From Actinomycetota bacterium (lineage in GTDB: Bacteria; Actinomycetota; CADDZG01; WHSQ01): a stretch of DNA of 24,000 nt. The stretch covers positions 35,215-59,214 of the forward strand of contig JAXDJH010000020.1 of NCBI GenBank assembly GCA_034663635.1, written 5' to 3'. Both the position numbers and the translations under genes were made by a program. Every line of letters begins with the position of its first letter. The first letter of the stretch is position 1. Under the pieces are notes generated by a model that was given only the letters and a program-made list of their open reading frames with translations, was not told the DNA's origin and searched no databases. Positions 435-23,424 of this stretch are shown in pieces.

Positions 435-950
435 TTAATACCCGTACCCCGAGTCGGAGTCGTTCGTGCTGCCGGAGTCGTCGGTGTAGCCCTTGTCGTA
501 CTTGTTGCCGCCACCACTCCCGCCGTTCGAGCCACCCGCCCCGGCCCCCGTTCCTCCGGCGACGGTGATCGTGCCCATCATCGAGGAGTGGATCTCGCAG
601 TGGAAGGTGACGAACCCGCTGTCGGGGGCCGTCGCGGTGGCCGTAACCGTTTGACCTGGGTCGGCTTTGACGTTCACATCCAAGTCGCCCGACGTGAAGG
701 TGTGTGGAGCCTCGTCTTTGTTGATGAAGGTGATTTCGAACTCGGCCCCCGCCGCAACCTCAACCTCTCGAGGGTCGTAGGCGAAGTTGATCGCCGACAC
801 CGTTACGCCGGAGGTGGCGGCCGGGGCCGAGTTCGAATCGGTAGGAGGCGCTCCACTGCCCGTGTCATCGGCGGCCTTGTCGCCACAGGCCGAAGTGAGC
901 GCCACGATCGCCAGGACGACGAGTGCCCACCTTGTTTTGGATGGAGCCAT
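435..950 (-). CDS. Cupredoxin (plastocyanin/amicyanin-like type-1 copper) lipoprotein with a Gly/Ser/Asp/Tyr-rich C-terminal tail
   Basis: 171 aa. The signal peptide ends in a lipobox-like LTSAC. Copper ligand pattern: His in APHTF, then C-x2-H-x3/4-M in HCEIHSSMMG. An SD (GGGAGG) lies upstream of ATG 950. Confidence 0.75.
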   Translation of the reverse strand: MAPSKTRWALVVLAIVALTSACGDKAADDTGSGAPPTDSNSAPAATSGVTVSAINFAYDPREVEVAAGAEFEITFINKDEAPHTFTSGDLDVNVKADPGQTVTATATAPDSGFVTFHCEIHSSMMGTITVAGGTGAGAGGSNGGSGGGNKYDKGYTDDSGSTNDSDSGYGY

Positions 951-2757: not shown

Positions 2758-4080
2758 ATGCAGGCCGTAGCCGACGCATTTCAGTACGTAAACGCCGCTG
2801 CGTTCCTTTTTCTTGGTTTGCTTGGGGCCCGCGTCTGGATGAGGCGCCACGATAGCCAGAGCGCGTGGATGAGCCTTACCTTCGGGATCCTGGGCGTTAT
2901 CGCCATCATCGGTCTCGTCCAGCCCGAGAAGGTTGAGTCGGATCTTGGGCAGCTCCTCCTCAAGTTCGAGATCGGGGTGCTGCTTCTCTTCCCGTACTTC
3001 CTCTATCGCTTCGCCGCGAGCTTCGACCCCCCGTCGCGAAGGACGGAATATCTGGCCGCGATCGTTACGGGTATCGCCATCATCTGGCCCTTCTTCCTCG
3101 GGGGCAACATCCCGCAACAGGGTGAAAGGCAGACGACTGAGTGGCGTATCTACATTCTGGTGTTGCTCTTCCAGTGGACCTTGTTGTCGATCCTGGCAGC
3201 GGTTCGATTGTGGCGTGGGGGGGGTGATCTTCCCGAGGTGGCGCGTCGTCGAACCCACCTGCTGAGCATCGCGACGCTCCTATTGAGTGTTGTGATCATC
3301 ATCTCGGGGTCCAGCTCGTCCGAGCCCGCGCCCGAGGTTCAGGTGATCACGGCAGGCATGACCCTTGTTGCGGCCCTCGCCTTCTACTTCGGTTTTTCGC
3401 CGCCAAGATTCGTTCTCATGGTTTGGCGACGACCGGCTCAGGACGCGCTTTACCGGGCCGTCACGGATCTCGTGAGCGCGGAGACCGAGCAGGACGTCAC
3501 CTCGTCGTTGTTGCCGCACGTGACCGACATCATCGGGGGCCGGGCCGTTGCCTTGGTCGAGAGAGAGGAAGTGATCCTCGACGCGCACGGTGCGACCCAA
3601 GAGATGCTCGATCACGTTCCCGGCCTCCTGAACGACCCTCAAACCCAGAGGGAGGGCGTCATCGTCGTTCCTTTGACATTTGCGACCGTCATCGTTTGGA
3701 CCAGCAGGTTCGCTCCTTTCTTCGGCGAGGAGGAACTCGAGCTCGTCAAGACGCTGGGTACCCTCGGACACTTCGCCTTGGAACGGACCAGGGCCACGCG
3801 TTTGAAGGCCGATCTGGCGGAAGCACAGAGGAGACGCGAGCAGGCGCTCCAGATCAACGACAACGTCGTGCAGGGTCTCGCCGTGGCGAAATACTCATTC
3901 GAGATGGGTCTTCAGGATCGCGGGATCGAAGCGATCGACAAGACCCTTTCGGCCGCGCGGTCGATCATCTCCGACCTTCTCGAGGAGATCGGTGGGGACA
4001 CGAACCTCGAGGCCGGCGCGTTGATCCGCCACGAACCTGCAGGCTTCGATCCCGAACGTTCTGCGGAGACCGGCTCCTGA
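2758..4080 (+). CDS. Polytopic membrane sensor-like protein: about 6-7 TM helices, a GAF-like domain, and a degenerate HisKA_3-like dimerisation helix with no HATPase domain
   Basis: 440 aa. The N-terminal half is hydrophobic. The middle has a GAF-like end pattern (VIVVPLTF...FGEEELELVKTLGTLGHFALERTR). The C-terminus reads QINDNVVQGLAVAKYSF...AIDKTLSAARSIISDLLEEIG, which follows the HisKA_3 pattern ELHDxVxQxL with Asn in the His position. The protein ends about 70 aa later with no N/G1/G2 boxes. Confidence 0.6.
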   Translation: MQAVADAFQYVNAAAFLFLGLLGARVWMRRHDSQSAWMSLTFGILGVIAIIGLVQPEKVESDLGQLLLKFEIGVLLLFPYFLYRFAASFDPPSRRTEYLAAIVTGIAIIWPFFLGGNIPQQGERQTTEWRIYILVLLFQWTLLSILAAVRLWRGGGDLPEVARRRTHLLSIATLLLSVVIIISGSSSSEPAPEVQVITAGMTLVAALAFYFGFSPPRFVLMVWRRPAQDALYRAVTDLVSAETEQDVTSSLLPHVTDIIGGRAVALVEREEVILDAHGATQEMLDHVPGLLNDPQTQREGVIVVPLTFATVIVWTSRFAPFFGEEELELVKTLGTLGHFALERTRATRLKADLAEAQRRREQALQINDNVVQGLAVAKYSFEMGLQDRGIEAIDKTLSAARSIISDLLEEIGGDTNLEAGALIRHEPAGFDPERSAETGS

Positions 4081-4127
4081 CCCTCGACCGCAAGTTCCTC
4101 GACCGATTCGATCGGCTTCGCAAGGAG

Positions 4128-5162
4128 ATGTCCGAACGAGGCATCGATCACCTGTGGGTCGAACCCTCGGTCGGGTTCCTCTATCTCACTGGTCTCGAAC
4201 CGATAAGCGTGGAGCGGATCACCGCATTGCTGATCCCGGCCGATGGGGACCTTCGTCTTCTCGTTCCACTGATGCTTGCGGAGGAGTGCGAAGTCATCGG
4301 AGCAGAGGCAGTGACCTGGGACGACACGGAGGGTCCCGACGCAGCGGTAGGTCGCATCTTGTCCGGCATCAAAACCTTGCACGTCCAAGGTTCGCTTCCG
4401 ACATGGGCGATGTTCGCGTTGCAAGCAGCGGCTCCTGGCACCACGATCGATCTCGATCCGGGAACGCTCGAGCGACTTCGCGAGATAAAGGACGACTCCG
4501 AGATCGAAGGCCTGAAGGTCTCCGGCGCGACGACCGACGGCGTTATCTCGTGGATCGAGACGATGCCACCCGCCGGTCTGACCGAGGTGGCTCTGGGGAA
4601 GCGGATCCAGATGCGTTACCTCGAGCTCGGTGTTGTGCCGACGGACATGCCGCTCGTTGCGTGGGGCGCGAATGCAGCGATGCCTCATCATGCCGGCGGC
4701 GACGTCCTGATCGAACCCAACGCCCCCCTGCTCGTGGACATCGGATGTCGCGTCGATGGCTACTGGTCTGACATCACTCGCGTCTACTTCCCCGAGAACA
4801 CCTCATCCGAGATCAACGGTGCCTTCGATGTGGTTTGCGCGGCACATGACGCGGCCCTGGCCTCAGTGGCGGTGGGCGTTCCTTGCTCCGAGGTTGACCG
4901 CGCCGCGCGCGCAGTGATCGAAGAAGCGGGACTGGGAGAGCGCTTCGTGCACCGGACCGGCCATGGCCTGGGCCTCGAGATGCACGAAGCTCCCTACATC
5001 AGAAGCGGTAACGAGCAGTTGCTAGAGGTCGGTCACGTGTTCAGCATCGAGCCGGGCGTCTATCTGCCCGGGAAGTTCGGGTTACGTTTCGAGAACATCG
5101 TCGCGGTGACCGCAGATGGTCCGCTCGTTCTTAACCAAGCCGCCCGCAGGCACAAGCTCTAG
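4128..5162 (+). CDS. M24B family Xaa-Pro aminopeptidase/dipeptidase
   Basis: Metal-ligand and signature blocks: VDIGCRVDGYWSDITR, HRTGHGLGLEMHEAPYI, GHVFSIEPGVYLPGKFGLRFENIVAVT. The first ATG is 4128, but N-domain-like sequence continues upstream to a CTG at 4077, so the start is uncertain. Confidence 0.85.
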   Translation: MSERGIDHLWVEPSVGFLYLTGLEPISVERITALLIPADGDLRLLVPLMLAEECEVIGAEAVTWDDTEGPDAAVGRILSGIKTLHVQGSLPTWAMFALQAAAPGTTIDLDPGTLERLREIKDDSEIEGLKVSGATTDGVISWIETMPPAGLTEVALGKRIQMRYLELGVVPTDMPLVAWGANAAMPHHAGGDVLIEPNAPLLVDIGCRVDGYWSDITRVYFPENTSSEINGAFDVVCAAHDAALASVAVGVPCSEVDRAARAVIEEAGLGERFVHRTGHGLGLEMHEAPYIRSGNEQLLEVGHVFSIEPGVYLPGKFGLRFENIVAVTADGPLVLNQAARRHKL

Positions 5163-6043
5163 ATCGGGTCGGCGTAGCCGTACCAACCGGCGTCGCCAAC
5201 GGCGGCACATTCTTCTTTCGCGAAACAGTAGAAGGGCCCGTCGCTGCCTCCGGCCCACCACAACGTCTCGATCCCCGACGGCGCGAGCTTCTTGCGGATG
5301 AATATGTAAGCCCTTGTCCCGTCGCTCGTGAACAGCCCCTTCATGCCCGGCTGCCAGTCCCCCCAGACGAACGCGAGTCTGACCTTGTCCCATCCCTCGG
5401 TGGCTTCCTTCATGTCGGCGGTTTGGGGATCGATCGTGAAGAAGTAGTGGCCGTTCGGCTTCGTAAGGCGATAGAGCGTCCGGGTCGGCGTCGGTGGGGC
5501 AGGCTCTTCTGGCTCAGCGGGCTTCGGGCGATGCTTCGGCGAGGCGGTGTTCGCTCGATGCTCCGTGGGAGGCGGTGAGACCGGGGCCGGAGCGGAAGTG
5601 GACGCAGGGGGTGCGTCCTGGGGCGCGAGCTCGATGGGTTGAGCGACCTTCCGGTGTGGCGAGTGGGCGGGAGCTTTCGAGCGTTGTGAGCTCTTAGCGT
5701 GATCCTTCGGGCTTCGTCCGTGTGGGCGATCGACTGGGTAGACGAGGCGAGGAGACTCAACCGGATCGGCGACCGAGATCTCGACGAGGGCCGGGGGAGC
5801 CTTCACTTGCGCCGGGTTCGAACGGCCGGCGAGCATCGCAGCGGTCACGGCCACAACGAGGAGAGCGGCCATCGCCTGATAGGCAGCCCCGCTCTTGATC
5901 CAACGGATCGGCGCGCGGAGGCGGCGAGCTCGGCGTGAGGCCCGGTCGGGCTCTGACCTCTCTGGTGTCGGTGGCGATTCGGCGCGCCCCGAGGGAGGCA
6001 GATGTTGATCGGTTCCGTCGAAGCGCCCGCCCGGCATGACCAC
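5159..6043 (-). CDS. Hypothetical membrane-anchored proline-rich protein with an uncharacterised Trp/Gly-rich C-terminal domain
   Basis: 294 aa with GC3-rich codons. It has an N-terminal basic segment, a TM helix (AMAALLVVAVTAAMLAG), a roughly 130-aa Pro/Ala/Ser/Lys linker, and a C-terminal domain (LYRLTKPNGHYFFTIDPQTADMKEATEGWDKVRLAFVWG...). That domain loosely resembles the YRFxNxxxGxHFYT-type (DUF5648-like) repeat. The start (GTG 6043 or ATG 6037) is uncertain. Confidence 0.55.
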   Translation of the reverse strand: MVMPGGRFDGTDQHLPPSGRAESPPTPERSEPDRASRRARRLRAPIRWIKSGAAYQAMAALLVVAVTAAMLAGRSNPAQVKAPPALVEISVADPVESPRLVYPVDRPHGRSPKDHAKSSQRSKAPAHSPHRKVAQPIELAPQDAPPASTSAPAPVSPPPTEHRANTASPKHRPKPAEPEEPAPPTPTRTLYRLTKPNGHYFFTIDPQTADMKEATEGWDKVRLAFVWGDWQPGMKGLFTSDGTRAYIFIRKKLAPSGIETLWWAGGSDGPFYCFAKEECAAVGDAGWYGYADPI

Positions 6044-6086
6044 GCATTCTTCATCGCCGCCCTCGGTTCCTTCCCGCGCCGCGCAC

Positions 6087-6092
6087 TAGAGT
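6087..6092 (+). promoter_or_regulatory. Candidate -10 box TAGAGT, 6 nt upstream of ATG 6099 (possible leaderless transcript)
   Basis: TAGAGT fits the actinobacterial TANNNT / TAGRRT -10 pattern. There is no SD between it and the start codon. Confidence 0.3.
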
Positions 6093-6098
6093 CTGGCG

Positions 6099-6887
6099 AT
6101 GGGGCGGGTCCTGGCGATCGCATGTCTTTTCTTCGCGCTCTTGGTTCCGGCCGCGTCCGGCGTCGACTCCTGTCGCGGCCATCCAGTCACGATCGACGGA
6201 ACTCGTGACGGCGACAACATCCAGGGAACGCCGGGCGACGATGTCATCTCGGGCGGACCCGGTGCCGACAGGATCCACGGTCTCGGGGGCCGCGACGTGC
6301 TCTGTGGCGGGGGAGGAGCCGACCTCCTCGACGGAGGCGATGGGGACGACCTTGTATTTGGTGGCGAGGGTGGGGACACGATCGATGGAGGCACGGGCGA
6401 CGATGTCTTGTCGGGTGAGGAGGCCAACGACGGTCTGACAGGTGGAGCGGGATTCGACGTCGTTCGCTATGGACGAGCTCCGTCTGCGGTGATCGTTGAT
6501 CTGAAAGACGGAACGGCATCGGCACGTTCCGGTGGTGGCACCGGGGCCGACACCATCCTCGAGGTCGAGGGCGCTTACGGCTCGTCTTTCGACGACCTAC
6601 TGATCGCCGGACCGGAGGGCTCTTTCCTCGTCGGCAATCGGGGAGCGGACGAGGCCATCGGCGGGCCGGGACCGGACCGAATCTTCGGAGGTCAGGGGCG
6701 TGACGATCTGATCGGTCGCCTCGGCCCCGACGAGTTGACCGGCGATGACGGCGCGGATCGGATGCGAGGCTCCGGAGGAGCCGACGCTCTCATCGGCGGT
6801 TCGGGCAACGACATCGTGGACGGCGGTAAAGGCCGAGATGATTGCGACGGGGGACCGGGTGACGACCGTTTCATCGACTGCGACTGA
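6099..6887 (+). CDS. Secreted hemolysin-type (RTX) calcium-binding repeat protein
   Basis: Sec-type signal peptide (MGRVLAIACLFFALLVPAASG). Two blocks of GGxGxD nonapeptide repeats (GGPGADRIHGLGGRDVLCGGGGADLLDGGDGDDLVFGGEGGDTIDGGTGDD... and GGPGPDRIFGGQGRDDLIG...GSGGADALIGGSGNDIVDGGKGRDDCDGGPGDD). They are separated by a VIVDLKDGTA...GADTILEVEGAYGSSFDDLL linker typical of such proteins. Confidence 0.85.
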   Translation: MGRVLAIACLFFALLVPAASGVDSCRGHPVTIDGTRDGDNIQGTPGDDVISGGPGADRIHGLGGRDVLCGGGGADLLDGGDGDDLVFGGEGGDTIDGGTGDDVLSGEEANDGLTGGAGFDVVRYGRAPSAVIVDLKDGTASARSGGGTGADTILEVEGAYGSSFDDLLIAGPEGSFLVGNRGADEAIGGPGPDRIFGGQGRDDLIGRLGPDELTGDDGADRMRGSGGADALIGGSGNDIVDGGKGRDDCDGGPGDDRFIDCD

Positions 6888-7326
6888 GCCCGCGCGGCTC
6901 TCATCCAAGGGCCGCCGGATCCGGCTGATGGCGACGGCTCTCGTCGGCATCGCGCTGCTTCTGGGCGCGGCCTTCGGCAACGATGACAACTTCCCCTTTG
7001 GTCCGTTCCGGATGTACTCGACGACGAACGATCTCGACGGGACCGTCAATGCGGTGAGGTTCTATGCCGTCGATTCCGAGGGCCGAGAGCTCACTCCAAG
7101 GTCGCAAGACTTCGGATTGAGACCGGCCGAGGTGAATGGTCAGGTAGCCCGTTTCCGAGCCGATCCCGATCTGCTCGGTCGACTCGCCGAGGCCTACGTG
7201 AAGGCCCATCCCGACGCGGCACCTCTCCGCGAGCTGACTCTCGGATACGGGATCTGGACCTTGGAGGGCGGACGGCCGGTCGCCTACCGGGAGGAAAAGC
7301 TCGTCACGTGGAGGACGGAGGCATGA
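6859..7326 (+). CDS. Hypothetical small signal-anchored/secreted protein, translationally coupled to the downstream HTTM gene
   Basis: GC3-rich frame. A basic segment (SSKGRRIR) precedes the hydrophobic helix MATALVGIALLLGAAFG, followed by a soluble domain of roughly 115 aa. Start is either GTG 6859 (a GGGGGA SD-like tract 4 nt upstream, 29-nt overlap with the RTX gene) or ATG 6928. The stop overlaps the next start (ATGA at 7323-7326). Confidence 0.55.
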   Translation: MTTVSSTATEPARLSSKGRRIRLMATALVGIALLLGAAFGNDDNFPFGPFRMYSTTNDLDGTVNAVRFYAVDSEGRELTPRSQDFGLRPAEVNGQVARFRADPDLLGRLAEAYVKAHPDAAPLRELTLGYGIWTLEGGRPVAYREEKLVTWRTEA

Positions 7327-8189
7327 GCTCGGTTGGGGAGCGGCTGTCCGAGTGGTGGACGATGCCGATCGCGCGCGGCCGTCTCGCGGCGCTTCGGACG
7401 ATCCTGTATCTGTTCGTTTTCGTCGATGTGCTGGTGACCACCTCGTGGGTTGCTCGACACGCGCTGGTGCCGGGAGATCTCTACCAACCCCTGTTCTTAG
7501 CTCGCTTCTTAGGCCTCCCTGAACCTGAAGGCATGGCGGTAACCGCCATCGAGATCTTGCTCTTAGTCACTGCCGCGGTCGCTGCGAGTGGACGTTCGCC
7601 GCGCGTTGCGGGGGCCGCGGTCTTCGTCCTCTATCTCGTGTGGATGTTCATCGGCATGAGTTACGGCAAGGTCGACCACGACCGGTTCGCGTTCCTTGTC
7701 GCGCTGGCGGTTCTTCCCACAGCTCCGAAAGCTAGATGGGGCGATCAGACTCCGGATGAAGCCGCGGGCTGGGCGATCCGCTGCATCCAGGTATCGGTGG
7801 TCGCGACGTACTTCCTTGCCGCGTTCGCGAAGTTGAGGTTCGGGGGGCCGGGGTGGGTTAATGGAGCGACCTTGATGCGGGCAATCCTCCGGCGCGGAAC
7901 GTCCTTGGTCGAGTGGCTGAAGAGCTCACCTTGGGTCCTGAGGATCAGCCAGTACGGGATCGTGGCCTTCGAACTGTTGTCGCCCTTGATGTTGCGCCGC
8001 GACCGGATCGGAAAGGCTTTCGTGCTCGCGGCGTTCATGTTCCACATCGTCACGTACGCGTCCATAACGATCGTCTTCCTGCCACACGTGATGTGCTTAC
8101 TCGCATTCCTCCCGCTGGAACGCATCCCATCCCCTCTGGAAGCATTGAGACGACGTTCTTCAGGTTCGGCGGTCTTGACGGAATCTTGA
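7323..8189 (+). CDS. HTTM-domain polytopic membrane protein (vitamin K-dependent gamma-carboxylase-like / SdpB-like family)
   Basis: 288 aa with about 8 hydrophobic helices. The layout follows the HTTM pattern: an N-terminal R..LAALRTILYLFVFVDVL helix, YQPLFLARFLGLPEP, then a loop with YGKVDHDRFAFLVALAVLP, then W-containing AGWAIRCIQVSVVATYFLAAFAKLRFGGPGWVNGATL. Assigned by eye only. Confidence 0.6.
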   Translation: MSSVGERLSEWWTMPIARGRLAALRTILYLFVFVDVLVTTSWVARHALVPGDLYQPLFLARFLGLPEPEGMAVTAIEILLLVTAAVAASGRSPRVAGAAVFVLYLVWMFIGMSYGKVDHDRFAFLVALAVLPTAPKARWGDQTPDEAAGWAIRCIQVSVVATYFLAAFAKLRFGGPGWVNGATLMRAILRRGTSLVEWLKSSPWVLRISQYGIVAFELLSPLMLRRDRIGKAFVLAAFMFHIVTYASITIVFLPHVMCLLAFLPLERIPSPLEALRRRSSGSAVLTES

Positions 8190-13611: not shown

Positions 13612-14847
13612 TTATACCGGGCTATTACCGGACAAATCTGATGAGGAGGACCGGACGTTGAGCAGAGCGAGAACCCCGATGACTGCAACGATCAGGTTGC
13701 GTGCCAGCAGAACCATGAGACCCGGCAGATTGCCGGTTCGGGTGCCTCCTTCGAACAACGGCTGGATCACTTCGCCGATCGTGTACGGGAAGACGATCTG
13801 CGTGAGACCTGCAACGACGAGCACGAGCAGAAGCGGGATCAATGCTCGGGTCGAGCGCGGCCAGCAAGCAGCTACGGCGGCCAGCGCGACCAGCCAGATC
13901 CCGTACTGGGGCGAAAACACGGTGCCGAAGAACATGAGCAGGGCCAGGATCCCGTAGAGCCCAAGCGCGAGCGTCGGAACGTCGTCACGTTCGATCTTCC
14001 GGTGCACGAGGAACGTGCCCGCCACCAAGGCGATCAGAGAGCCGCTCAGCGCGAGGTTCTTAAGGAGCGAACCGGCAGTCGAGATCACCTCGTACGCGCC
14101 AAATCTGATCGTGACGAATATCGCATAGCCGAAGCGACTCGCCAGCAGCAGGAAGCCTCCCCACGTGCTCTCGATCTGGATGCCGCGCAAGCCGTGGTAC
14201 TGAACTACATCGCGCATCAGGTCTGGACCCGCCCCCGTGATGAAGATCGGGATCACAAGGGCCGCGACTATCGCCACGCATCCGAGCGCGAACGATCGCT
14301 TGCGCGGCGAAGCGACGAAGGTCGCCGGGATAAGGAACGCGGGGTAGACCTTCGCGGCCGCTCCGAAACCAAGGAGGGCGCCGGCGGCCGACCACGCTCC
14401 GACCGAAGCACGTTCCACGGCCCAGATCGTCGCGACCGCCGGAAGGAGATCGAGGCGCAGGTAGATGATCGGACCGAGCAGTAGACCGCCGAGGATCCAT
14501 AGGGCGGGGCCGATCCATGAGCCGTATCGATGAGCGAGGACGATCACTCCCGCGAACCCGATCAGGTCGACGACGGTCATCAGCCAGACGAACCGGTCCC
14601 GGTAGGTGTCGCCGGCGAAGCCCAGGACCTTGGGGGCCGCGATGAAAGGGAGAGACCCCGGCGGGTACTCGATCTCGATGTCCTTATAGGCGCGCTTGTC
14701 TCCGTCGATTAGGTCGTTCGCCCACGATTCGTATTTCCCGACATCACCCGAGGTCGCGATATTGATCGGGCGGAATGCAGCGGCTGTTGTGAAGATGCGG
14801 CAGGCGATGAATGCGATGCCCAGGATGACGAGCGTGCGTCGACTCAC
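13612..14847 (-). CDS. Polytopic membrane glycosyltransferase-like protein (GT87 / DUF2029, PimE-like GT-C fold)
   Basis: About 10-11 TM helices. It has an early loop IEYPPGSLPFIAAP typical of DUF2029/GT87. I placed the start at GTG 14847 because it forms a GTGA overlap with the ligase stop and gives a basic N-terminus (VSRRTLV) before TM1. Alternatives are ATG 14889 and the track start at 14979. Confidence 0.6.
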   Translation of the reverse strand: MSRRTLVILGIAFIACRIFTTAAAFRPINIATSGDVGKYESWANDLIDGDKRAYKDIEIEYPPGSLPFIAAPKVLGFAGDTYRDRFVWLMTVVDLIGFAGVIVLAHRYGSWIGPALWILGGLLLGPIIYLRLDLLPAVATIWAVERASVGAWSAAGALLGFGAAAKVYPAFLIPATFVASPRKRSFALGCVAIVAALVIPIFITGAGPDLMRDVVQYHGLRGIQIESTWGGFLLLASRFGYAIFVTIRFGAYEVISTAGSLLKNLALSGSLIALVAGTFLVHRKIERDDVPTLALGLYGILALLMFFGTVFSPQYGIWLVALAAVAACWPRSTRALIPLLLVLVVAGLTQIVFPYTIGEVIQPLFEGGTRTGNLPGLMVLLARNLIVAVIGVLALLNVRSSSSDLSGNSPV

Positions 14848-15932
14848 GACCTCGTTCGGCCGCGCGGCATGATCTGGTCGAAGCGACATTCCTCGGGAGG
14901 CTTGTCCGGTCGCCAGCGTTGGAATCTGGCCGCGTGGCGGAACCGACCGTTCTGGAGATGCTCGTATCGGACCTCGCACGCAAGCACCGGCTTGATGGGC
15001 ACGTAACTCGCGTCTCTACCGGTCATGCCCGTCCACCGACTCGGCCCCCCCGGAGTGCGGCCTCCTCCGAAACTTTCATGGCCTTCGTACTTCTTAAGGT
15101 CCGCGAGCAGCTTCTTACGCTCCGGGGCCTTGAATGACGACGTGTGACCTACGTACTGCAGGACGCCCTCGTCGTCGTAAAGGCCGAGCAGCAACGATCC
15201 GACTCCGTCGTTCGTCTTGTTGATCCTGTAACCGCCCACGACGCAGTCGGCGGTCCGGTGATGCTTGATCTTCAGCATCGCGCGGACCCCGGGCGCGTAG
15301 ACCTGATCGGTCTTCTTGGCGATGACTCCATCGAGCCCCGCGCCCTCGAACACCTCGAACCAGAACTCCGCGATCTTCGGGTCTGCCGTCTGCGGAGTGA
15401 TCGCCACGAGGGGGCTCGGTTGAAGCGCCTCGATCACTTTGTCCTCGAGATCGCCGTGGTCTTCCTTCGGACCGTCTCCGGGTAGATGGACCGCATTCGC
15501 AAGGAGCTCCTCGAGTCGAGCCCGCCGGGTGTCGAGCCGCGCCTCGCGCAGATCTTTCTTCCCTTCTGAGAGGAGGTCGAACGCGACGAAGGATGCTGGA
15601 GTTGTCTCGGACAGCATCTTCACGCGCGACGCCGCGGGATGGATCCGCTGGAGGAGTCGGTCGAAGTCGAGACCTTCCTTCATCGGCACCACGATCTCGC
15701 CGTCCAACACGCAGGCTTTCGGGAGCGAGTCGGCAAGGGCCGCCTCGACCTCCGGGAAGTATCGGTTCAAAGGCTTGAGGTCCCGGCTGTAGATGGTGAC
15801 GTCGGACCCATCCTTGAAGACGACCGCCCTGAAGCCGTCCCACTTCGGCTCGTAGACCCAGTCTCCAGTGGGCATCCCCTCCGAGACCTTGGCCAGCATC
15901 GGCTCGATGGGAGGGTCGAAGGGCAGCGCCAT
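14844..15932 (-). CDS. Stand-alone ATP-dependent DNA ligase (LigC / LigD-ligase-domain type)
   Basis: Motif I YEPKWDGFR (adenylated Lys), LDGEIVV, GLDGVIAKK, MLKIKH, plus a C-terminal OB-fold region. Start candidates are ATG 15932, 15941 and 15944. The track start at 16019 adds non-homologous residues. Confidence 0.85.
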   Translation of the reverse strand: MALPFDPPIEPMLAKVSEGMPTGDWVYEPKWDGFRAVVFKDGSDVTIYSRDLKPLNRYFPEVEAALADSLPKACVLDGEIVVPMKEGLDFDRLLQRIHPAASRVKMLSETTPASFVAFDLLSEGKKDLREARLDTRRARLEELLANAVHLPGDGPKEDHGDLEDKVIEALQPSPLVAITPQTADPKIAEFWFEVFEGAGLDGVIAKKTDQVYAPGVRAMLKIKHHRTADCVVGGYRINKTNDGVGSLLLGLYDDEGVLQYVGHTSSFKAPERKKLLADLKKYEGHESFGGGRTPGGPSRWTGMTGRDASYVPIKPVLACEVRYEHLQNGRFRHAARFQRWRPDKPPEECRFDQIMPRGRTRS

Positions 15933-16992: not shown

Positions 16993-17439
16993 ATGGCAGA
17001 GAGCAAACAAGATCGAGAACTCATCGAGCTGTTGAATGAGCTGCGCGTCGTTCTTCCCGGCGTGCAGGTCCTGTTCGCATTCCTCTTGACAGTTCCCTTC
17101 GCCCAAGGCTGGACGAAGGTGACGGGCTCCGAGAAGGCGGTCTTCTTCACTGCCTTCGTGTGCATGGCGATAGCCACGGCCCTGCTGATCGCGCCGAGCG
17201 CGTATCACCGCATCCGGTGGCGGGAGAAGGACAAGGAAGCGATGCTCGTCTATTCGAACCGTTTGGCGATCGCGGGGATCTTCTTCCTTGCCATCGCGAT
17301 GACGTGCGTCGTCTATTTCCTGACCGACCACCTCTACACGGGCTTAGCTCCATGGGTTACCGCGGGCGTCGCCGGTCTGTTCACCTGGTTCTGGTTCGGC
17401 CTCCCGATCATGAGGCACATCCAAGACTCAGACAACTAG
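16993..17439 (+). CDS. DUF6328-family small membrane protein
   Basis: N-terminal ELIELLNELRVVLPGVQVLFAFLLTVPF signature followed by 3 further TM helices. Confidence 0.7.
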   Translation: MAESKQDRELIELLNELRVVLPGVQVLFAFLLTVPFAQGWTKVTGSEKAVFFTAFVCMAIATALLIAPSAYHRIRWREKDKEAMLVYSNRLAIAGIFFLAIAMTCVVYFLTDHLYTGLAPWVTAGVAGLFTWFWFGLPIMRHIQDSDN

Positions 17440-18950
17440 GTCCCATCCGCGTCGTAGGCGATCGTGACGTAATCGCCATCCCAGAAGTCGCCTCCCACTC
17501 CGGTAATGAACACGTCTCCATTCGACGAGATCGCGCCATCTTGCGCGTTGTCTTCGGAGGTCCCCTCGGGGCTGCTGTTGTAAGCGGCGCTCCATATCAC
17601 CGCTCCCGTCGCTGAGTCATATGCGATGGTCCGGAAATCCCTTGAGAACCCCCGCTTGATGTCCGTGGCGATCAGGTATGCCGTGGCTCGACCCGAATCC
17701 ACCAGCACGTCGACTGCGATGGTCCCTTGAGCGCGTGCGTACGACTGTTCCCAGATCTGGGATCCATCGAAGATCGAGTAAGCGCGGGTCGTGACACTGT
17801 CGAATGCGGACGGCGTCGGATCCACGTCGGGGAGCATGCCCGTCACGATCACCCGGTTTCCGCCACGATCGAGGGCCATCTCTGGGCCCGATCCGTAACC
17901 CTGGGAATGCGTCTCGTGTTTGGTTGACCAGATCTGCGATCCGTCATCTCCAGACAAGGCCAGAGTCTCGTACCGCCAGTCGTATTCATCGGTCGTGTCG
18001 TTGGTTCGTCGAAAGTGGGTTGCGGTCACGAGGAGATAACCAGATCCGCCGTCGAACTCCATGTCGACCGTGCCGTAGGGGAACCACCGCGGGTTGGAAT
18101 GCGTCTGCACCGCCCAATCCTGTCGTTGTGTCGCGTCGTCCTGGAGTTCGTAGTGAAGGCTTGTGATGTCGAAGTCTCTGATCGCGTCGTCTCCTCGACT
18201 TTCGCCCGTCACGTAGAACGACGTTCCGTCAGTGTCCAAGGCGATGTCGTGCGCGACGTCCTCGTTTCCTGCCGGCCCGTCGTAGAGAGTGCGCCACAAC
18301 ACCTTTCCCGTCGCAGCCGAGAACGCAACGGTCACCATGTCTTGCTGGCGCTTGTCGTCGACCCGCACCGTCCCAGAGACCAGGAGGGTGGATCCATCGG
18401 AAGTTACGGCTGTTGCGGTTGGATAGCCTTTCTTAGCGATGGGAGTTGCCGCCCATAGCTCTTCGCCAGTGGCCGCCGAGTAGGCGAGGATGCGCCAGCG
18501 ACTGTCGACGCGACCCGAATTGTGGAGGCCCGCGACGAAGACGCGATCGGACTGTGGCGAGACCACCATGTCGGCGGGAAAGTCGGATTCGCCTTCCGGA
18601 CCATCATGGTGGGCCACCCACAGCTTCTGGCCGGTTGCGGCGTCGTATGCGACCGTCGCGATGTCGATGTCCTTGCCCTTCAAGGGGCTTTCGCCGGTCA
18701 CAAATACACGTGAGCCGTCCGGGGAGGTTTTGATCACGAACGGACGATCCCACTGTTGCACCCCCCGACTCGGCGAGGAATCGCGTTCGGAACTCCACTT
18801 CTTCGCCCACAGCTCACACCGATCGTCGTCGGGCAGGTCACATGTGCCTACGGCCCGCGCCGGGGTGGTCATGAGAATCGACAAGGACAACAGACACATG
18901 GCTATCGCTACGGTGCCGGTCCGCCGAGACATGTTCCTCACGCGCTTCAT
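17436..18950 (-). CDS. Secreted beta-propeller repeat protein (PQQ-like / SBBP-like blades)
   Basis: Signal peptide ending TTPARA. About 7-8 repeats of the pattern hhVTG...(Y/F)xAATGxxLW (e.g. YDAATGQKLW, YSAATGEELW, FSAATGKVLW, YDSATGAVIW). SD GGGAGGG lies 8 nt before the ATG. Confidence 0.7.
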   Translation of the reverse strand: MKRVRNMSRRTGTVAIAMCLLSLSILMTTPARAVGTCDLPDDDRCELWAKKWSSERDSSPSRGVQQWDRPFVIKTSPDGSRVFVTGESPLKGKDIDIATVAYDAATGQKLWVAHHDGPEGESDFPADMVVSPQSDRVFVAGLHNSGRVDSRWRILAYSAATGEELWAATPIAKKGYPTATAVTSDGSTLLVSGTVRVDDKRQQDMVTVAFSAATGKVLWRTLYDGPAGNEDVAHDIALDTDGTSFYVTGESRGDDAIRDFDITSLHYELQDDATQRQDWAVQTHSNPRWFPYGTVDMEFDGGSGYLLVTATHFRRTNDTTDEYDWRYETLALSGDDGSQIWSTKHETHSQGYGSGPEMALDRGGNRVIVTGMLPDVDPTPSAFDSVTTRAYSIFDGSQIWEQSYARAQGTIAVDVLVDSGRATAYLIATDIKRGFSRDFRTIAYDSATGAVIWSAAYNSSPEGTSEDNAQDGAISSNGDVFITGVGGDFWDGDYVTIAYDADGT

Positions 18951-19013: not shown

Positions 19014-19190
19014 TCAGCTTGAAGAGACGACGGGGCCGTGTTTGCGGCAGCGCGCTTCGTAGCCTTGCGGGGTGACCTGGACGTCTAGCTTTCGGCCACA
19101 TTCTTTGCAGAACCTCGGAGGATCTAAAGGACGTCGGCAGGACCCGTCACATTCGTCGGCCGGTTTTCCGCATCCTTGGCAGAACAACAT
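19014..19190 (-). CDS. bsaP: Biotin synthase auxiliary protein BsaP-like small Cys-rich protein (58 aa)
   Basis: The start ATG shares one base with the bioB stop (TGATG), and GAAGG lies 7 nt upstream. The core PPRFCKECGRKLDVQVTPQGYEARCRKHG matches my recollection of the conserved core of the small protein encoded downstream of mycobacterial bioB (Rv1590/BsaP). It also has an extra N-terminal CQGC-x6-C-x3-C. Confidence 0.7.
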   Translation of the reverse strand: MLFCQGCGKPADECDGSCRRPLDPPRFCKECGRKLDVQVTPQGYEARCRKHGPVVSSS

Positions 19191-20191
19191 CAGATGACCT
19201 TCGAGAGCACTCCGATCGGCATCCGGAGATCGTCCAGCATCTGAAGGTCCTGCTGTGGCTTGCGGCCGAGCGTCGTCAGGTAATTGCCGACGATCAGCGC
19301 GTTGATCCCCGCCGTCATCCCCATGGCCTGGAGTTCGCGCAAGGTCACCTCGCGGCCCCCGGCGTAACGCAGGATGACCTCGGGTAGCGCGAGACGGAAC
19401 AGTGCGATCCACTTGATGGCTTCCAGCGGCTTGACGAGGTTGCGGTCTCCCAACGGAGTGCCGGGCCGGGGGTTGAGGAAGTTGAGCGGCACCTCCGCCG
19501 GCTCGACATCGCGGAGCTGGCTGAGCAGTTCGATGCGTTGTTCGTCCGTCTCGCCCATCCCCAGAAGCGCGCCGCAACAGAGCTCCATCCCGACCTCGCG
19601 CACGAGCATGCACGTCTCGAAGCGCTCGTCGAACGTGTGGGTGGTGACGATCTCAGGGAAGAACGAGCGGGAGGTCTCGAGGTTGTGGTTGTAGCGGTGC
19701 ACCCCGCCCTCGGCGAGGCGCTTCGCTTGATCGCGATCGAGGATGCCGAGGCTCGCCGCGACGTTCAAGCCGGTCTCGGCTTTCACGAGCTGGGCCGCCT
19801 GGATGACGTTGTCGACGACTCGATCATCGGGGCCGCGCAATGCCATGACGATGCAGAACTCCGACGCTCCGAGCTCGGCCGTCTCGCGAGCCGCCGACAG
19901 GATCTGATCCATGTCGAGGTAGGGAGTCGGCCGAACCACGGTGTCGAACTTCGACGACTGTGAGCAGAAATGGCAGTCCTCAGGGCAGCCGCCCGTCTTG
20001 GCCGACAGGATCCCTTCGACCTCGACCTCCGGCCCACAGCGAGCGAGTCGCACTTCGTGGGCGGTTGCGGCGAGGGCGGGCACCGAGTCGTCGGGCAGCG
20101 CGGCTAGCTCGCGCAACTCGTCGAGGTCGAGGTCTCGGCGTTCGTCGATCAGGGCGCGGGCCGCGCCCTCGAGCAGTGCTCGGGTGGTCAT
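19190..20191 (-). CDS. bioB: Biotin synthase (radical SAM)
   Basis: CPEDCHFCSQS radical-SAM CxxxCxxC. Full-length BioB-like sequence (YNHNLETS, LCCGALLGMGE, NFLNPRPGTPL, RYAGGRE). Confidence 0.95.
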   Translation of the reverse strand: MTTRALLEGAARALIDERRDLDLDELRELAALPDDSVPALAATAHEVRLARCGPEVEVEGILSAKTGGCPEDCHFCSQSSKFDTVVRPTPYLDMDQILSAARETAELGASEFCIVMALRGPDDRVVDNVIQAAQLVKAETGLNVAASLGILDRDQAKRLAEGGVHRYNHNLETSRSFFPEIVTTHTFDERFETCMLVREVGMELCCGALLGMGETDEQRIELLSQLRDVEPAEVPLNFLNPRPGTPLGDRNLVKPLEAIKWIALFRLALPEVILRYAGGREVTLRELQAMGMTAGINALIVGNYLTTLGRKPQQDLQMLDDLRMPIGVLSKVI

Positions 20192-20811
20192 CCAACCTCC
20201 ATCTGTAGTGCTGCGAATAGGTCAGCGAGTTCGGAGGGCGAGGTGACGACCTCGGCCCCCACTTCGGTCCGGAGCCAGTCGCGGTTCCGAGTGTGCATCT
20301 CATCCATGGGATCGAAACGATTAAGAGCGACGACCACCCTGTGGGGCGCGAACGCATCGATCCCGAGGCGAACGTCATTGATGACTCCGAGCTCGGCTTG
20401 TGCAACGAGAACGATGACGTCCGCGGTGATCGAGCTGGCGAGGGTGACTGTGTCTCCGTCCGAAGCTAGGGGAGAGCGCGGCCCGCCGACTCCTTCGACG
20501 AAGGTGATGCCCGTCTCGGGTACGTGAAGGTCCCAGAGGATGTCGATCAAGCGCATCTCCGGCTTGCCGAGAACGCGCGCTGCCATCGGGGGTGCGAGCG
20601 GGAACTCGTAGGAGTGGCGGCACACATCCGTCATGTGGTCACCGCTTGCTCGCGCCAGGATCTCGGCGTCGGTCACCTCGCCGGGCTCGAAGGACTGAAC
20701 GGGCTTGCGGGCATGGGCCTCTATCCCGCGCCGCCGAAGCATCTCGATCGTTCGGGCCGTGAACCACGTCTTTCCTATCTCGGTGCCGGTGGCCGAAACG
20801 ACGACGATCAT
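20188..20811 (-). CDS. bioD: Dethiobiotin synthetase
   Basis: MIVVVSATGTEIGKT P-loop and VEGVGG block. ATGA overlaps at both ends (with bioF and bioB). The 576-aa track ORF is this gene fused in frame to an out-of-frame shadow of bioF. Confidence 0.9.
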   Translation of the reverse strand: MIVVVSATGTEIGKTWFTARTIEMLRRRGIEAHARKPVQSFEPGEVTDAEILARASGDHMTDVCRHSYEFPLAPPMAARVLGKPEMRLIDILWDLHVPETGITFVEGVGGPRSPLASDGDTVTLASSITADVIVLVAQAELGVINDVRLGIDAFAPHRVVVALNRFDPMDEMHTRNRDWLRTEVGAEVVTSPSELADLFAALQMEVG

Positions 20812-21926
20812 CGAGCCACCCCCGCCATGGCGACGCGGTCGAGCGCCTCCTTCAGAGCATCTATCTGTTCGAACGTGTGGAGGGCGGAAAGCGTGACGCG
20901 CAGACGCGCGGTTCCGGGCGCGACCGACGGGGGCCGGATCGCCGGGACGAGGAATCCGTCCTCGAGCAAGCGAGCGGCCGCGTCCACCGCGACGCGGTCG
21001 TCGCCGATCACGACGGGAACGATGGGAGAGGGATGACCGGGCCGGAACCGCTCGATGTTGTCCGCCAGTCGTGTCCGGAGGGCCGCTCCCTCGTCGGATC
21101 CGACTAGCTCGACAGCGGCGAGAGCTGCTCCGGCGTCCGCCGGGCTCCCGGCCGTCGTGAAGATGAAGGGCCGGCAGTTGTTGATGAGGTAGTCGATGAA
21201 GGGCTCGGCCGCGGCGACGAATCCGCCGGCGGAGCCGATGAACTTCGACAGCGTCCCGACCCGGATGACGTGATCGGCCGCGGGGACGGGGGGGCCGAGG
21301 ACGGCATGCGCCTCGTCCAGGACCAAAAGCGCCCCGTGACGGGCGGTGAGCTCGACCAACCCGGCCACGTCGGCGACGTCGCCGTCCATCGAGAAAACGC
21401 TGTCGGAGACCACTATGGGTTCGTTTGCCCCCGATAGCATCCGTTCGAGTTCGCGGAGATCGTTGTGTGGATATACGCGCGACTCCGCGCGCGCGAGCCT
21501 GCATCCGTCCACGATGGACGCGTGATTCAGCTCGTCGCTGAAGATGGTCGCGCGTTGCGTCCCGAAGGCACTCAGAACCCCCAGGTTGGCCGCGAACCCC
21601 GTCGGGAACAGGAGTGCGCGCGCGGTTGCCTTCCAGCGCGCGAGGGCGCGCTCGAGTTCGTCGTGGATCGGTCGCGCACCTACGATTAGTCGCGCGGACC
21701 CCGATCCGGCCCCGTAACGCTCCAATGCATCGCGAGCGGCCGCGATAACGCGCGGATGCCCCGTGAGGCCCAGGTAGTCGTTGGACGCGAAAGAGACGAC
21801 CGGCCGGCCATCGGGCAGGGTCTTCTCGATGCCAGGCTCTCCATCGAGGGCTCGGATGACCCGCCAGCGGTCGTGCTCTGCGGTCTCGGCGTTCGCGCCC
21901 CGGGCTCGCTCCACCCAATCCGTCAT
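20808..21926 (-). CDS. bioF: 8-amino-7-oxononanoate synthase
   Basis: Class-II aminotransferase blocks: FASNDYLGL, DELNHASI, VLDEAHA, GTLSKFIGSAGGF (PLP Lys). ATG 21926 forms an ATGA overlap with the bioA stop. Confidence 0.9.
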   Translation of the reverse strand: MTDWVERARGANAETAEHDRWRVIRALDGEPGIEKTLPDGRPVVSFASNDYLGLTGHPRVIAAARDALERYGAGSGSARLIVGARPIHDELERALARWKATARALLFPTGFAANLGVLSAFGTQRATIFSDELNHASIVDGCRLARAESRVYPHNDLRELERMLSGANEPIVVSDSVFSMDGDVADVAGLVELTARHGALLVLDEAHAVLGPPVPAADHVIRVGTLSKFIGSAGGFVAAAEPFIDYLINNCRPFIFTTAGSPADAGAALAAVELVGSDEGAALRTRLADNIERFRPGHPSPIVPVVIGDDRVAVDAAARLLEDGFLVPAIRPPSVAPGTARLRVTLSALHTFEQIDALKEALDRVAMAGVAR

Positions 21927-23191
21927 GCGTAGACCTCTTCTATGGCTGCGTCGAGCGCGTCGACGATCCGATGGATCTCGTCGGAGGTGATCGTGAGCGG
22001 AGGCATGATCACGACGACGTCTCCTAGCGGGCGGAGGAGCACGCCACGTCTCGTCGTGGCCGCGCATGCCCTGCGCCCGACGCGCTCGCCGGGCTCGAGC
22101 TCGACGCCGAACATCAGGCCGCGCCTCCGGACCTCCTTAACGTGGCGGGTCAGACGTTCGGCGAGAAGCCGCTCCAGCTCGTCGCCGCGCTCGTTGACGT
22201 TTCGCAGCAGATCGTCGTCGATCAACTCGAGATGCTTGAGCGCGACGGCCGCGGCGAGCGCATTCCCCGAATAGGAATGGCCGTGATACAGCGTCTTGGG
22301 CCCGAGATCCTCGCCGAGGAACGCCTCGTAGACCCGTGCGTTGGCGACCGTCGCAGACATCGGGAGATAACCGCCCGTCAGGCCTTTGCCGAGACAGAGG
22401 ACGTCGGGTTGCAGCCCGCACTGCTCGCTCGCGAACAGCGTGCCCGTCCGCCCGAAGCCTGTGGCGACCTCATCGCAGATCAAGAGCACGCCGGTGTCTT
22501 TACACGCCTCCGCGAGTTGAGCGAACTCGGCCGGATCGGCCACCTGCATGCCGGCGGCTCCTTGGACCAGTGGCTCAACAACCACAGCGGCGAGCTCGTC
22601 ACGATGCGTGCGCACCATCTGCGCGGCCTTGTAGAGCGCGTCGGGCGACTCGTAACCGGGAGCGCGAAGTACAGGGAAACGAAGTGGATCGAAGATGTCG
22701 GTTCCGAACCCGCCCGCACCGAGCGAGAGCGAGCCGATCGTGTCGCCGTGATACGCGCCCCCGAGGGCGAGGTAGTTGGTGCGTCCCTCGACGCCTGAGT
22801 TGATCCAGTACTGGAACGCGATCTTGAGTGCCTGCTCGACCGCCGCGGCTCCATCCGATGCGAACAAGAAATGAGGCCGATCGACGGGCACGCGTTCGGC
22901 AAGTGCCTCGGCCAGCTCGATCACCGTGCGGTTGCCGTTGCCGAGCATCGTGGAGTGTGCGATCCGCCCGGCCTGCTCGATGAGGGCCGCGTCGAGCTCC
23001 GATATCCGGTGACCCAGCGTCGTCACCCAGAGCGATGAGATGGCGTCGAGGTAGCGATTGCCGTCGACGTCGATGAGCTCCCGGCCCTCGGCGCGCTCGA
23101 CCACCACGGGCTCGTTGTCGGCGTAGGTCGCCATCTGAGTGAACCCGTGCCACACGACGGATGCGTCGCGCTCGATCCAGTCCGGGGTCAT
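21923..23191 (-). CDS. bioA: Adenosylmethionine-8-amino-7-oxononanoate aminotransferase
   Basis: Class-III aminotransferase blocks: VWHGFTQM, HGHSYSGN, ICDEVATGFGRTG, LCLGKGLTGGYLP. I placed the start at ATG 23191. The track ORF extension would run through tRNA-Cys. Confidence 0.92.
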   Translation of the reverse strand: MTPDWIERDASVVWHGFTQMATYADNEPVVVERAEGRELIDVDGNRYLDAISSLWVTTLGHRISELDAALIEQAGRIAHSTMLGNGNRTVIELAEALAERVPVDRPHFLFASDGAAAVEQALKIAFQYWINSGVEGRTNYLALGGAYHGDTIGSLSLGAGGFGTDIFDPLRFPVLRAPGYESPDALYKAAQMVRTHRDELAAVVVEPLVQGAAGMQVADPAEFAQLAEACKDTGVLLICDEVATGFGRTGTLFASEQCGLQPDVLCLGKGLTGGYLPMSATVANARVYEAFLGEDLGPKTLYHGHSYSGNALAAAVALKHLELIDDDLLRNVNERGDELERLLAERLTRHVKEVRRRGLMFGVELEPGERVGRRACAATTRRGVLLRPLGDVVVIMPPLTITSDEIHRIVDALDAAIEEVYA

Positions 23192-23199
23192 CGCCGGGG

Positions 23200-23205
23200 A
23201 CCCTA
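23200..23205 (-). promoter_or_regulatory. Candidate -10 box TAGGGT, 8 nt upstream of the bioA ATG (possible leaderless bio operon transcript)
   Basis: The minus strand reads TGTCATAGGGTCCCCGGCGATG. This is a TANNNT match with no SD. Confidence 0.3.
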
Positions 23206-23260
23206 TGACATGGCGGGAAGGGGAGCGGGGGCCGGGGCGTTTATCCTGCGTTGCCAGCCT

Positions 23261-23332
23261 GGCGGCGTGGCCGAGTGGTTTAGGCAAGGGACTGCAAATC
23301 CCTGCACAGCGGTTCGATTCCGCTCGCCGCCT
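23261..23332 (+). tRNA. tRNA-Cys (anticodon GCA)
   Basis: Cloverleaf by eye: acceptor GGCGGCG/CGCCGCC, anticodon stem AGGGA/TCCCT with loop CTGCAAA, T-arm AGCGG-TTCGATT-CCGCT, discriminator T. CCA is not encoded. Confidence 0.9.
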
Positions 23333-23424
23333 CAAAGCCCGCATTCTTTTCCACGGTGCAGGACCTGAGGCCTCGGAACATGGAAAAGAGTGCGCCTAGC
23401 CGCGTTGGTAGACTCGGCGACCCT

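Follow-up and report, generated by a model that had tools for sequence, protein, structure and literature searches.

What is the task of a small protein without any known family that is encoded directly ahead of, and overlapping with, a membrane protein of the HTTM family? This question is raised by a 24,000-nucleotide (nt) stretch of an Actinomycetota genome (GenBank assembly GCA_034663635.1, contig JAXDJH010000020.1, positions 35,215 to 59,214), in the following called the window, which carries such a pair of genes on its plus strand. We found that the pair is a real, conserved and widespread module, present in hundreds of actinobacterial species, and that the small protein belongs to a previously undescribed family of HTTM partners. 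As to its function, we give an even chance to the complete picture in which both proteins are subunits of one membrane enzyme of the HTTM/vitamin K carboxylase type, comparable to the human carboxylase GGCX.

Gene layout and conservation of the pair

The small gene lies in a single reading frame (6745-7326, plus strand) with the in-frame starts ATG 6838, GTG 6859 and ATG 6928, of which the public gene callers choose ATG 6838 (P0001). ATG 6928 is an unlikely start, since the positively charged flank KGRRIR of the membrane helix would be lost and since a relative with 82% identity (P0003) carries Val at this position. The features of the two-gene operon are as follows:

6838..7326, plus strand: gene of the small signal-anchored subunit, 162 amino acids (aa) from ATG 6838, 155 aa from GTG 6859 and 132 aa from ATG 6928
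6928..6975, plus strand: single transmembrane helix MATALVGIALLLGAAF, residues 31-46 of the 162-aa form, with KGRRIR just before it
6976..7023, plus strand: signature loop GNDDNFPFGPFRMYST, immediately after the helix, invariant or nearly so across the family alignment
7024..7323, plus strand: outer alpha/beta domain of ~100 aa, with a strand, helices and a two-strand hairpin forming a three-stranded sheet (AlphaFold2, predicted local distance difference test (pLDDT) 95-98)
7310..7314, plus strand: Shine-Dalgarno-like GGAGG within the small gene, 8 nt before the HTTM ATG, as read from the sequence
7323..7326, plus strand: ATGA start/stop overlap for translational coupling, with the small-gene stop TGA (7324-7326) lying over the HTTM ATG (7323)
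7323..8189, plus strand: gene of the HTTM subunit, 288 aa, ~eight membrane helices
7659..7685, plus strand: invariant loop SYGKVDHDR between helices 3 and 4, in the region of GGCX loop LL3 (N159/H160), with different residues
7830..7832, plus strand: codon of Lys170 (within AKLRFGG), which corresponds to Lys218, the general base of GGCX; Trp178 further on corresponds to Trp223

The first-pass annotation, which was made from the letters of the window, had described a small protein with one N-terminal hydrophobic helix, whose gene shares an ATGA overlap with that of a polytopic protein of 288 aa, and both the ORFs (open reading frames) and the sequence confirm this description. A scan for promoters and terminators found none, which is uninformative in a genome of such high G+C content.

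One genome per species was scanned for relatives of the small protein, which yielded at least 558 stretches encoding one, and 80 loci (L003-L082) were examined. All named organisms among the matches listed are Actinomycetota, and relatives occur in Micromonospora, Actinoplanes, Blastococcus, Nocardioides, Frankiaceae, Mycobacteriales, Acidimicrobiales and Microthrixaceae. An HTTM homologue with 46-69% identity to the HTTM protein of the window adjoins the small gene in every one of the 80 loci, which span several actinobacterial orders. The 4-nt overlap (RTGA or TTGA, with ATG, GTG or TTG in the HTTM frame) is kept in 74 of them, and a TGATG junction is present in 2 more. Genes that stand side by side in all loci and share the same overlap in 74 represent an arrangement far beyond chance. 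The translational coupling proposed earlier is thereby upheld, and the conservation of the small gene beside HTTM homologues, on which the first-pass annotation had staked its proposal in advance, extends to the complete set.

Further loci illustrate how closely the two genes belong together. The pair is duplicated in tandem as a unit in L015 (2467-4990), while in L053 and L072 (about 4000-6600) a second HTTM copy follows ~470 nt past the first, leaving room for a second small gene. On the contigs of four further HTTM homologues, an unannotated gene of 129-145 aa overlaps the start of each. A natural fusion was found in P0347 (429 aa, L083:154-1443), with the order HTTM, linker, helix, FPFGPF loop and domain, opposite to the order in which the two genes usually stand; its single occurrence is on a 1.6-kb Logan contig, where unrelated genes flank it. 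P0376, which had been considered as a fusion in the small-to-HTTM order, was rejected as a frameshift artefact. We regard it as likely that the small protein and the HTTM protein are obligate partners.

The small partner family

The signature G-x-D-D-x-FPFGPFRMYST is invariant or nearly so in the family and stands right behind the helix of the small protein. In the alignment the outer domain is marked by a conserved R-x-A-E-x-x-G-Q motif and a near-invariant terminal W, and the small protein is free of Cys. Judged by the positive-inside rule, the N-terminus would be located inside and the C-terminal domain outside. The AlphaFold2 model of the small protein alone (23 sequences, pLDDT 88) places the helix at residues 16-39 of the 155-aa form, and its low-confidence stretch (pLDDT 58-64) coincides exactly with the signature loop.

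A word-indexed search gave 196 homologues at E<=1e-3, and among 1.84 billion representatives the family counts 341 cluster representatives at E<=1e-3; a Pfam domain is present in none. When 23 members were compared with Pfam-A at E<=10 no family was matched, and because this search spanned the entire Pfam-A, DUF5819, SdpA and VKGC_lumenal_dom (PF22777) are all unmatched by the small protein. Similarly, no NCBIfam model was matched at E<=1 by either the small or the HTTM protein. We conclude that the small proteins are a previously undescribed HTTM partner family. As a variation, P0282 and P0306 (256-261 aa) carry the outer domain twice in tandem, with altered loops (FPFGPLRQYST and FPFGPMRQYAT).

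The HTTM subunit and its relation to human GGCX

The assignment of the 288-aa protein to HTTM, already made in the first-pass annotation, is supported by Pfam PF05090 with 32.9 bits (E 6e-8; gathering cut-off 27.7 bits), where residues 25-266 align with positions 8-251 of the 259 in the profile. More than 2,400 homologues were found; PF05090 is present in most of those listed, and 120 listed homologues are ~59-77% identical, the identical self-match aside. The protein has ~eight helices in the fused model described below, and both of its ends would be cytoplasmic. Invariant blocks are SYGKVDHDR (113-121), AKLRFGG..W (169-178), R190-R191-G192, FEL.SP (216-221), FH (240-241) and F.P (252-254). 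In both proteins conservation is strongest in loops, which are predicted to lie on one shared (outer) side. The family alignment of the HTTM protein contains no conserved Cys pair, and neither an MFS nor any other transporter family was matched in Pfam and NCBIfam.

GGCX is built from nine membrane helices with a clamp A/B architecture. Its K218 is the general base that takes a proton from the hydroquinone of vitamin K, stacks on W223 and has D263 beside it. The highly conserved loop LL9 (GYNNWTNGLYGYSWDMMVH; Y395, M401, M402) follows the ninth transmembrane helix (TM9), covers the vitamin K pocket and contacts K218; after this loop comes clamp A, arranged around a three-stranded sheet (all PMC12647623). 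In the human GGCX sequence used here, which is identical to PDB chains such as 13ib_A, Pfam draws a corresponding division, with HTTM covering 56-315 and VKGC_lumenal_dom covering 361-506. When fragments of GGCX and of the HTTM protein were placed on the HTTM profile of Pfam, K170 and GGCX K218 both fell on position 162, E217 and D263 both on position 207, and F240-H241 and F286-H287 both on positions 230-231; K170, W178, E217 and F240-H241 are all invariant in the family. An independent hhalign comparison with a partial GGCX profile pairs K170 with K218 and W178 with W223 in a collinear alignment of 247 columns, with a probability of only 0.9%. As the equivalents of K218, W223, D263 and the FH pair are conserved, the quinol-activating site appears to be kept.

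A second line of evidence comes from structure prediction. A fused model, in which the HTTM protein is followed by the small protein, was calculated with AlphaFold2 from an unpaired block alignment (A7; pLDDT 80, predicted template modelling score (pTM) 0.60). Foldseek matched it in PDB to 13 GGCX chains with E 9e-6 to 2e-3 and probability 1.00, the next best hit having E 0.8, so that GGCX is the only fold matched significantly. With 463-489 columns the GGCX alignments extend through both the HTTM part and the partner part.

Several results weigh against reading the pair as a GGCX-like enzyme. The residue equivalences are derived from a Pfam match of 33 bits and from fragment coordinates that assume no internal indels (for K170 over a stretch of 21 residues), and the HTTM protein and its profile gave no significant match to the GGCX chains of PDB with HMMER and hhalign. 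The Glu-binding residues N159, H160 and Y395 of GGCX and its CO2-stacking F299 are not clearly kept: in hhalign H160 stands opposite F122, with H119 three residues away, in an N-terminal fragment without profile coordinates, and F299 maps on the Pfam profile to L253, adjacent to the invariant F252. In place of the N159/H160 loop the family has the invariant GKVDHDR, hence the substrate site differs. The confidence of the signature loop is not raised in the fused model (pLDDT 41-52), and together with the pTM of 0.60 and the unpaired alignment this leaves the docking of the two proteins unproven; moreover, the superposition on GGCX has a root-mean-square deviation of ~18 Å, which means that it takes in no more than a part of the fused model. 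The model of the small protein alone retrieved nothing from PDB (best E 0.2), and hhalign of the small family against the GGCX lumenal alignment gave a probability of 0.05-0.17% (P 0.35-0.82).

Homology of the small protein to the TM9-LL9-clamp A part of GGCX was considered and rejected. Smith-Waterman scores did not exceed those of shuffled sequences, and hhalign probabilities amounted to 0.05-0.34%, whether the small family was compared with GGCX alone or with a lumenal alignment of 19 sequences, or entered as a query profile of 245 sequences. The top alignment of the small family with the GGCX lumenal part always took one collinear form, which runs through strand, helix, strand and strand up to the conserved Trp, and it is not significant. 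What we claim, within a picture to which we attach even odds, is an equivalence of position, architecture and function, and not homology.

Gene neighbourhood

Upstream of the pair the window carries a gene for a calcium-binding repeat protein, and different neighbours recur in related loci:

6099..6887, plus strand: gene of an RTX calcium-binding repeat protein (Pfam HemolysinCabind, 110.8 bits), context only
L057:5334-5819, minus strand: DCC1-like gene, example from neighbour clustering
L011:5834-6283, minus strand: DCC1-like gene, example from neighbour clustering
L037:3429-3815, plus strand: thioredoxin gene, example from neighbour clustering

The Pfam match agrees with the first-pass annotation, which had recognized the upstream gene product as a Ca-binding repeat protein. 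The RTX protein has a signal-like sequence at its N-terminus, and the 3' end of its gene overlaps the 5' end of the small gene by 50 nt (29 nt counting from GTG 6859), so in the window it is probably co-transcribed with the pair. The RTX gene is nevertheless outside the conserved module: it is located upstream in only 2 of the 80 loci, the closest relatives L003 and L004, and is thus a lineage-specific neighbour instead of a conserved partner. The first-pass annotation had named this protein and a nearby surface-anchored protein as possible substrates. Neither is supported as a conserved substrate, as the anchored protein had no match in any of the 80 loci. The latter ('surface-anchored protein') is encoded at 5159-6043 on the minus strand of the window and comprises 294 aa, rich in Pro and Ala, with one hydrophobic helix and no family.

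Clustering of all flanking ORFs revealed no gene in more than 36 of the 80 loci, which makes the pair a self-contained two-gene module. The commonest functional neighbour, reaching this number, is a DCC1-like thiol-disulfide oxidoreductase gene (PF04134), which follows the HTTM gene in convergent orientation. In 23 loci the small gene has a thioredoxin gene immediately upstream on its own strand; a mesaconyl-CoA hydratase-like (MaoC-like) gene and DUF6758 are found in 30 loci each, YjbQ in 2 and a two-component system in 1. Within the window no ORF carries the DCC motif DGxCxxC, and neither a DCC1-like nor a thioredoxin gene is near its pair. These two neighbours are mostly present in Micromonosporaceae-like genomes. 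Their recurrence suggests a thiol-based recycling or redox partner; alternatively, it could reflect lineage synteny. The RTX, YjbQ, two-component system, MR_MLE, MaoC-like and DUF6758 genes, each considered as a conserved third gene of the module, were rejected as lineage synteny.

Two further contexts were noted. A gene of the MR_MLE type (mandelate racemase/muconate-lactonizing, enolase superfamily) follows the HTTM gene in four loci (L086:8861-10108, L087, L016 and L006); its start overlaps the HTTM stop in L086 and L087, and it appears to be lineage-specific. In L084 (1-10882) the pair is flanked on one side by genes for COX15-CtaA heme A synthase and UbiA/heme O synthase, and on the opposite side by a cupredoxin gene and a complete cytochrome c oxidase operon. 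Such an oxidase context was encountered once in six contexts inspected. The window also contains a cupredoxin gene (435-950, minus strand), ~6 kb from the pair, which may be a coincidence.

Proposed mechanism and rival explanations

If the two proteins form one enzyme, the ~eight helices of the HTTM subunit would hold a pocket for a quinol, presumably menaquinol. Trp178 would keep Lys170, the general base, in place at the outer membrane interface, with Glu217 at its flank, and Lys170 together with these two residues would start the oxygenation of the menaquinol. The small subunit would contribute the ninth helix; its FPFGPFRMYST loop would close the quinol pocket, and the domain with the three-stranded sheet would shape the substrate site on the outer face, so that the three elements would take the roles of GGCX TM9, LL9 and clamp A. 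The ATGA overlap would ensure equal synthesis of both subunits. By analogy, menaquinol and O2 would yield a strong base, and a substrate at the outer surface would have a C-H bond activated by it, with carboxylation or another base-driven modification as the outcome. That the pair performs an actual carboxylation seems improbable to us. The substrate is probably not encoded beside the pair and is rather a widespread component of the cell than the RTX neighbour: the module is autonomous and highly conserved in chromosomal surroundings of an ordinary kind, and both points favour a common cellular substrate over a toxin or the RTX neighbour. In its most far-reaching form the proposal would describe an Actinomycetota-wide, split GGCX-type carboxylase or base-generating oxygenase dependent on menaquinol and O2, which acts on a housekeeping substrate at the outer face and has a DCC1-like/thioredoxin recycling arm, as a bacterial counterpart of the vitamin K cycle; in this lineage the RTX protein could then be an additional substrate, as calcium is bound by carboxylated acidic residues. 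This extended version is speculative and rather unlikely to hold.

The DCC1-like and thioredoxin genes could also point to another function, namely a quinone-linked thiol redox module in which the HTTM pair passes electrons between menaquinone and such thiol proteins, cytoplasmic or in the envelope, without any C-H activation or carboxylation. The convergent downstream position of the former (36/80) and the upstream, same-strand position of the latter (23/80) fit this idea, as do the HTTM-DCC1 fusions reported in Firmicutes (bioRxiv 10.64898/2026.08.19.745780), and the reverse strand downstream of P0347 reads, in a translation made by eye, like the C-terminus of a DCC1-like protein. However, a convergent DCC1 gene is outside the operon, the window has no DGxCxxC ORF at all, and the predominance of both neighbours in Micromonosporaceae-like genomes could mean lineage synteny. 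The proteins themselves speak against thiol chemistry too, with no conserved Cys pair in the HTTM protein, no Cys in the small protein and conserved residues that correspond to the quinol-deprotonation site of GGCX. We hold a pure thiol redox module to be unlikely, and it partly overlaps with the GGCX-like enzyme, as DCC1 could recycle the quinone.

A different role is suggested by the layout that the pair shares with sdpAB, with a small partner gene and then the HTTM gene: a maturation module that would act on a secreted protein or peptide by processing or modification, in the way SdpA and SdpB act on the SdpC toxin of Bacillus, with the upstream RTX protein as its target here. The RTX 3' end overlapping the small-gene start, the possible co-transcription of the three genes in the window and the same upstream gene in the closest relatives L003 and L004 are in line with it, and HTTM genes are found in linaridin peptide clusters (PMC9927463). 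Yet the RTX gene is missing from 78 of the 80 loci, no third gene and in particular no SdpC-like gene is conserved, immunity genes are lacking, and neither protein matched any NCBIfam model at E<=1, which would include the SdpA- and SdpB-family models if the library contains them. With no Pfam match for the partner either, the membership in the SdpA and SdpB families put forward in the first-pass annotation is not borne out. Unlike accessory toxin loci, the HTTM gene is kept at ~46-69% identity over 80 loci from several orders in ordinary chromosomal contexts, and an SdpAB-like module appears quite unlikely. Least of all do we expect a non-catalytic pair acting as transporter, structural or assembly factor, for which the chances are slim. 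Some database entries name an HTTM homologue 'MFS transporter permease', no activity is demonstrated for this HTTM subfamily, and the heme A/O synthases and the cytochrome c oxidase operon in L084 could hint at assembly; but no MFS or transporter family was matched, the oxidase context is one of six inspected, the invariant polar and charged residues in the loops and at the K170 site are typical of an active site, and GGCX is the only fold that was matched.

Other features of the window

A gene at 2758-4080 (plus strand) encodes a protein of 440 aa without Pfam family, which is polytopic in its N-terminal half and soluble in its C-terminal half. Its neighbour on the opposite strand is a response-regulator gene, and it is located downstream of a sigma factor/anti-sigma (zf-HC2) pair. 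On the minus strand, a biotin synthesis cluster (19190-23344) encodes a radical SAM/BATS protein that resembles BioB, a protein of 576 aa and a BioA-like aminotransferase of class III; the 576-aa protein has a dethiobiotin-synthetase-like AAA_26 domain at residues 372-528 only and a long unexplained N-terminal part. The minus strand also encodes a membrane protein just under the GT87 glycosyltransferase cut-off (13612-14979; 24.2 vs 25 bits) and a 504-aa PQQ_2/BamB-like beta-propeller protein (17436-18950).

Significance of the module

To our knowledge, bacterial HTTM proteins are abundant and only few of them have a known function (SdpB, MloH and a Leptospira epoxidase). The first-pass annotation had called them essentially uncharacterised, which is partly outdated in view of the MloH carboxylase and the DUF5819/HTTM preprint. 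Our analysis defines an unannotated partner family by its sharp signature G-x-D-D-x-FPFGPFRMYST, together with a widespread two-gene module of Actinomycetota, and corrects the tempting link to the RTX neighbour as unsupported. It also provides a picture that can be tested, in which eight helices, one further helix and a small outer domain would constitute a minimal GGCX. If the chemistry is GGCX-like, vitamin K-type carboxylation or oxygenation could be studied, and its substrates sought, in culturable genera such as Micromonospora, Actinoplanes and Blastococcus as simple bacterial systems.

Comparison with known systems

Compared with GGCX, the ~eight helices of the HTTM subunit and the one of the partner add up to nine, as in the human enzyme, and the partner helix, the conserved loop and the three-stranded-sheet domain on the non-cytoplasmic side resemble TM9-LL9-clamp A in order, topology and size. 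In contrast to GGCX, the pair is split into two polypeptides, with the partner gene first and the order thereby reversed, and it has neither the clamp B jelly roll nor the C-terminal domain, as the 288-aa protein stops after the HTTM domain. The loops, FPFGPFRMYST and GLYGYSWDMMVH, are not demonstrably homologous.

In Bacillus, SdpA and SdpB are both needed together for function. The B. subtilis SdpA/SdpB genes (and YitP/YitO) likewise have the small partner directly upstream of the HTTM gene, and SdpA with SdpB is a genetic precedent for a small partner with an HTTM protein (PMC6818787). The pair described here differs by the lack of an SdpC-like precursor and of sdpRI immunity genes, and it is a widely conserved chromosomal pair and not an accessory toxin locus. 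MloH, which acts in the malonomycin pathway of Streptomyces, is a bacterial vitamin K-dependent carboxylase according to the passages that cite it in PMC12647623 and bioRxiv 10.64898/2026.08.19.745780. This HTTM enzyme includes a region equivalent to the partner domain, and the natural fusion P0347 has the same order; but MloH is a single fused protein encoded within a biosynthetic gene cluster, and its small-molecule substrate is known, whereas the pair is split and stands without such a cluster.

A further parallel is a Firmicute DUF5819 protein, consisting of an N-terminal helix and a domain, with an adjacent HTTM-DCC1 protein. The complex predicted for them by AlphaFold 3 resembles the whole of GGCX and the fused MloH, and in it the quinone pocket is contacted by residues of the partner close to a conserved Lys, Trp and Phe (bioRxiv 10.64898/2026.08.19.745780). 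Adjacent genes and a partner composed of an N-terminal helix and an extracytoplasmic domain of about 100-150 aa are common to both systems, and a link to DCC1 may be. The small protein is shorter, does not match DUF5819 and comes from a different phylum; DCC1 is not fused to HTTM here, being absent from the window and a separate convergent gene in 36 of the 80 relatives. Full-text literature searches on the HTTM domain and related families did not retrieve a description of the actinobacterial pair. The concept that a small partner and an HTTM protein together are GGCX-like is already published as a proposal for DUF5819; the actinobacterial partner family is undescribed.

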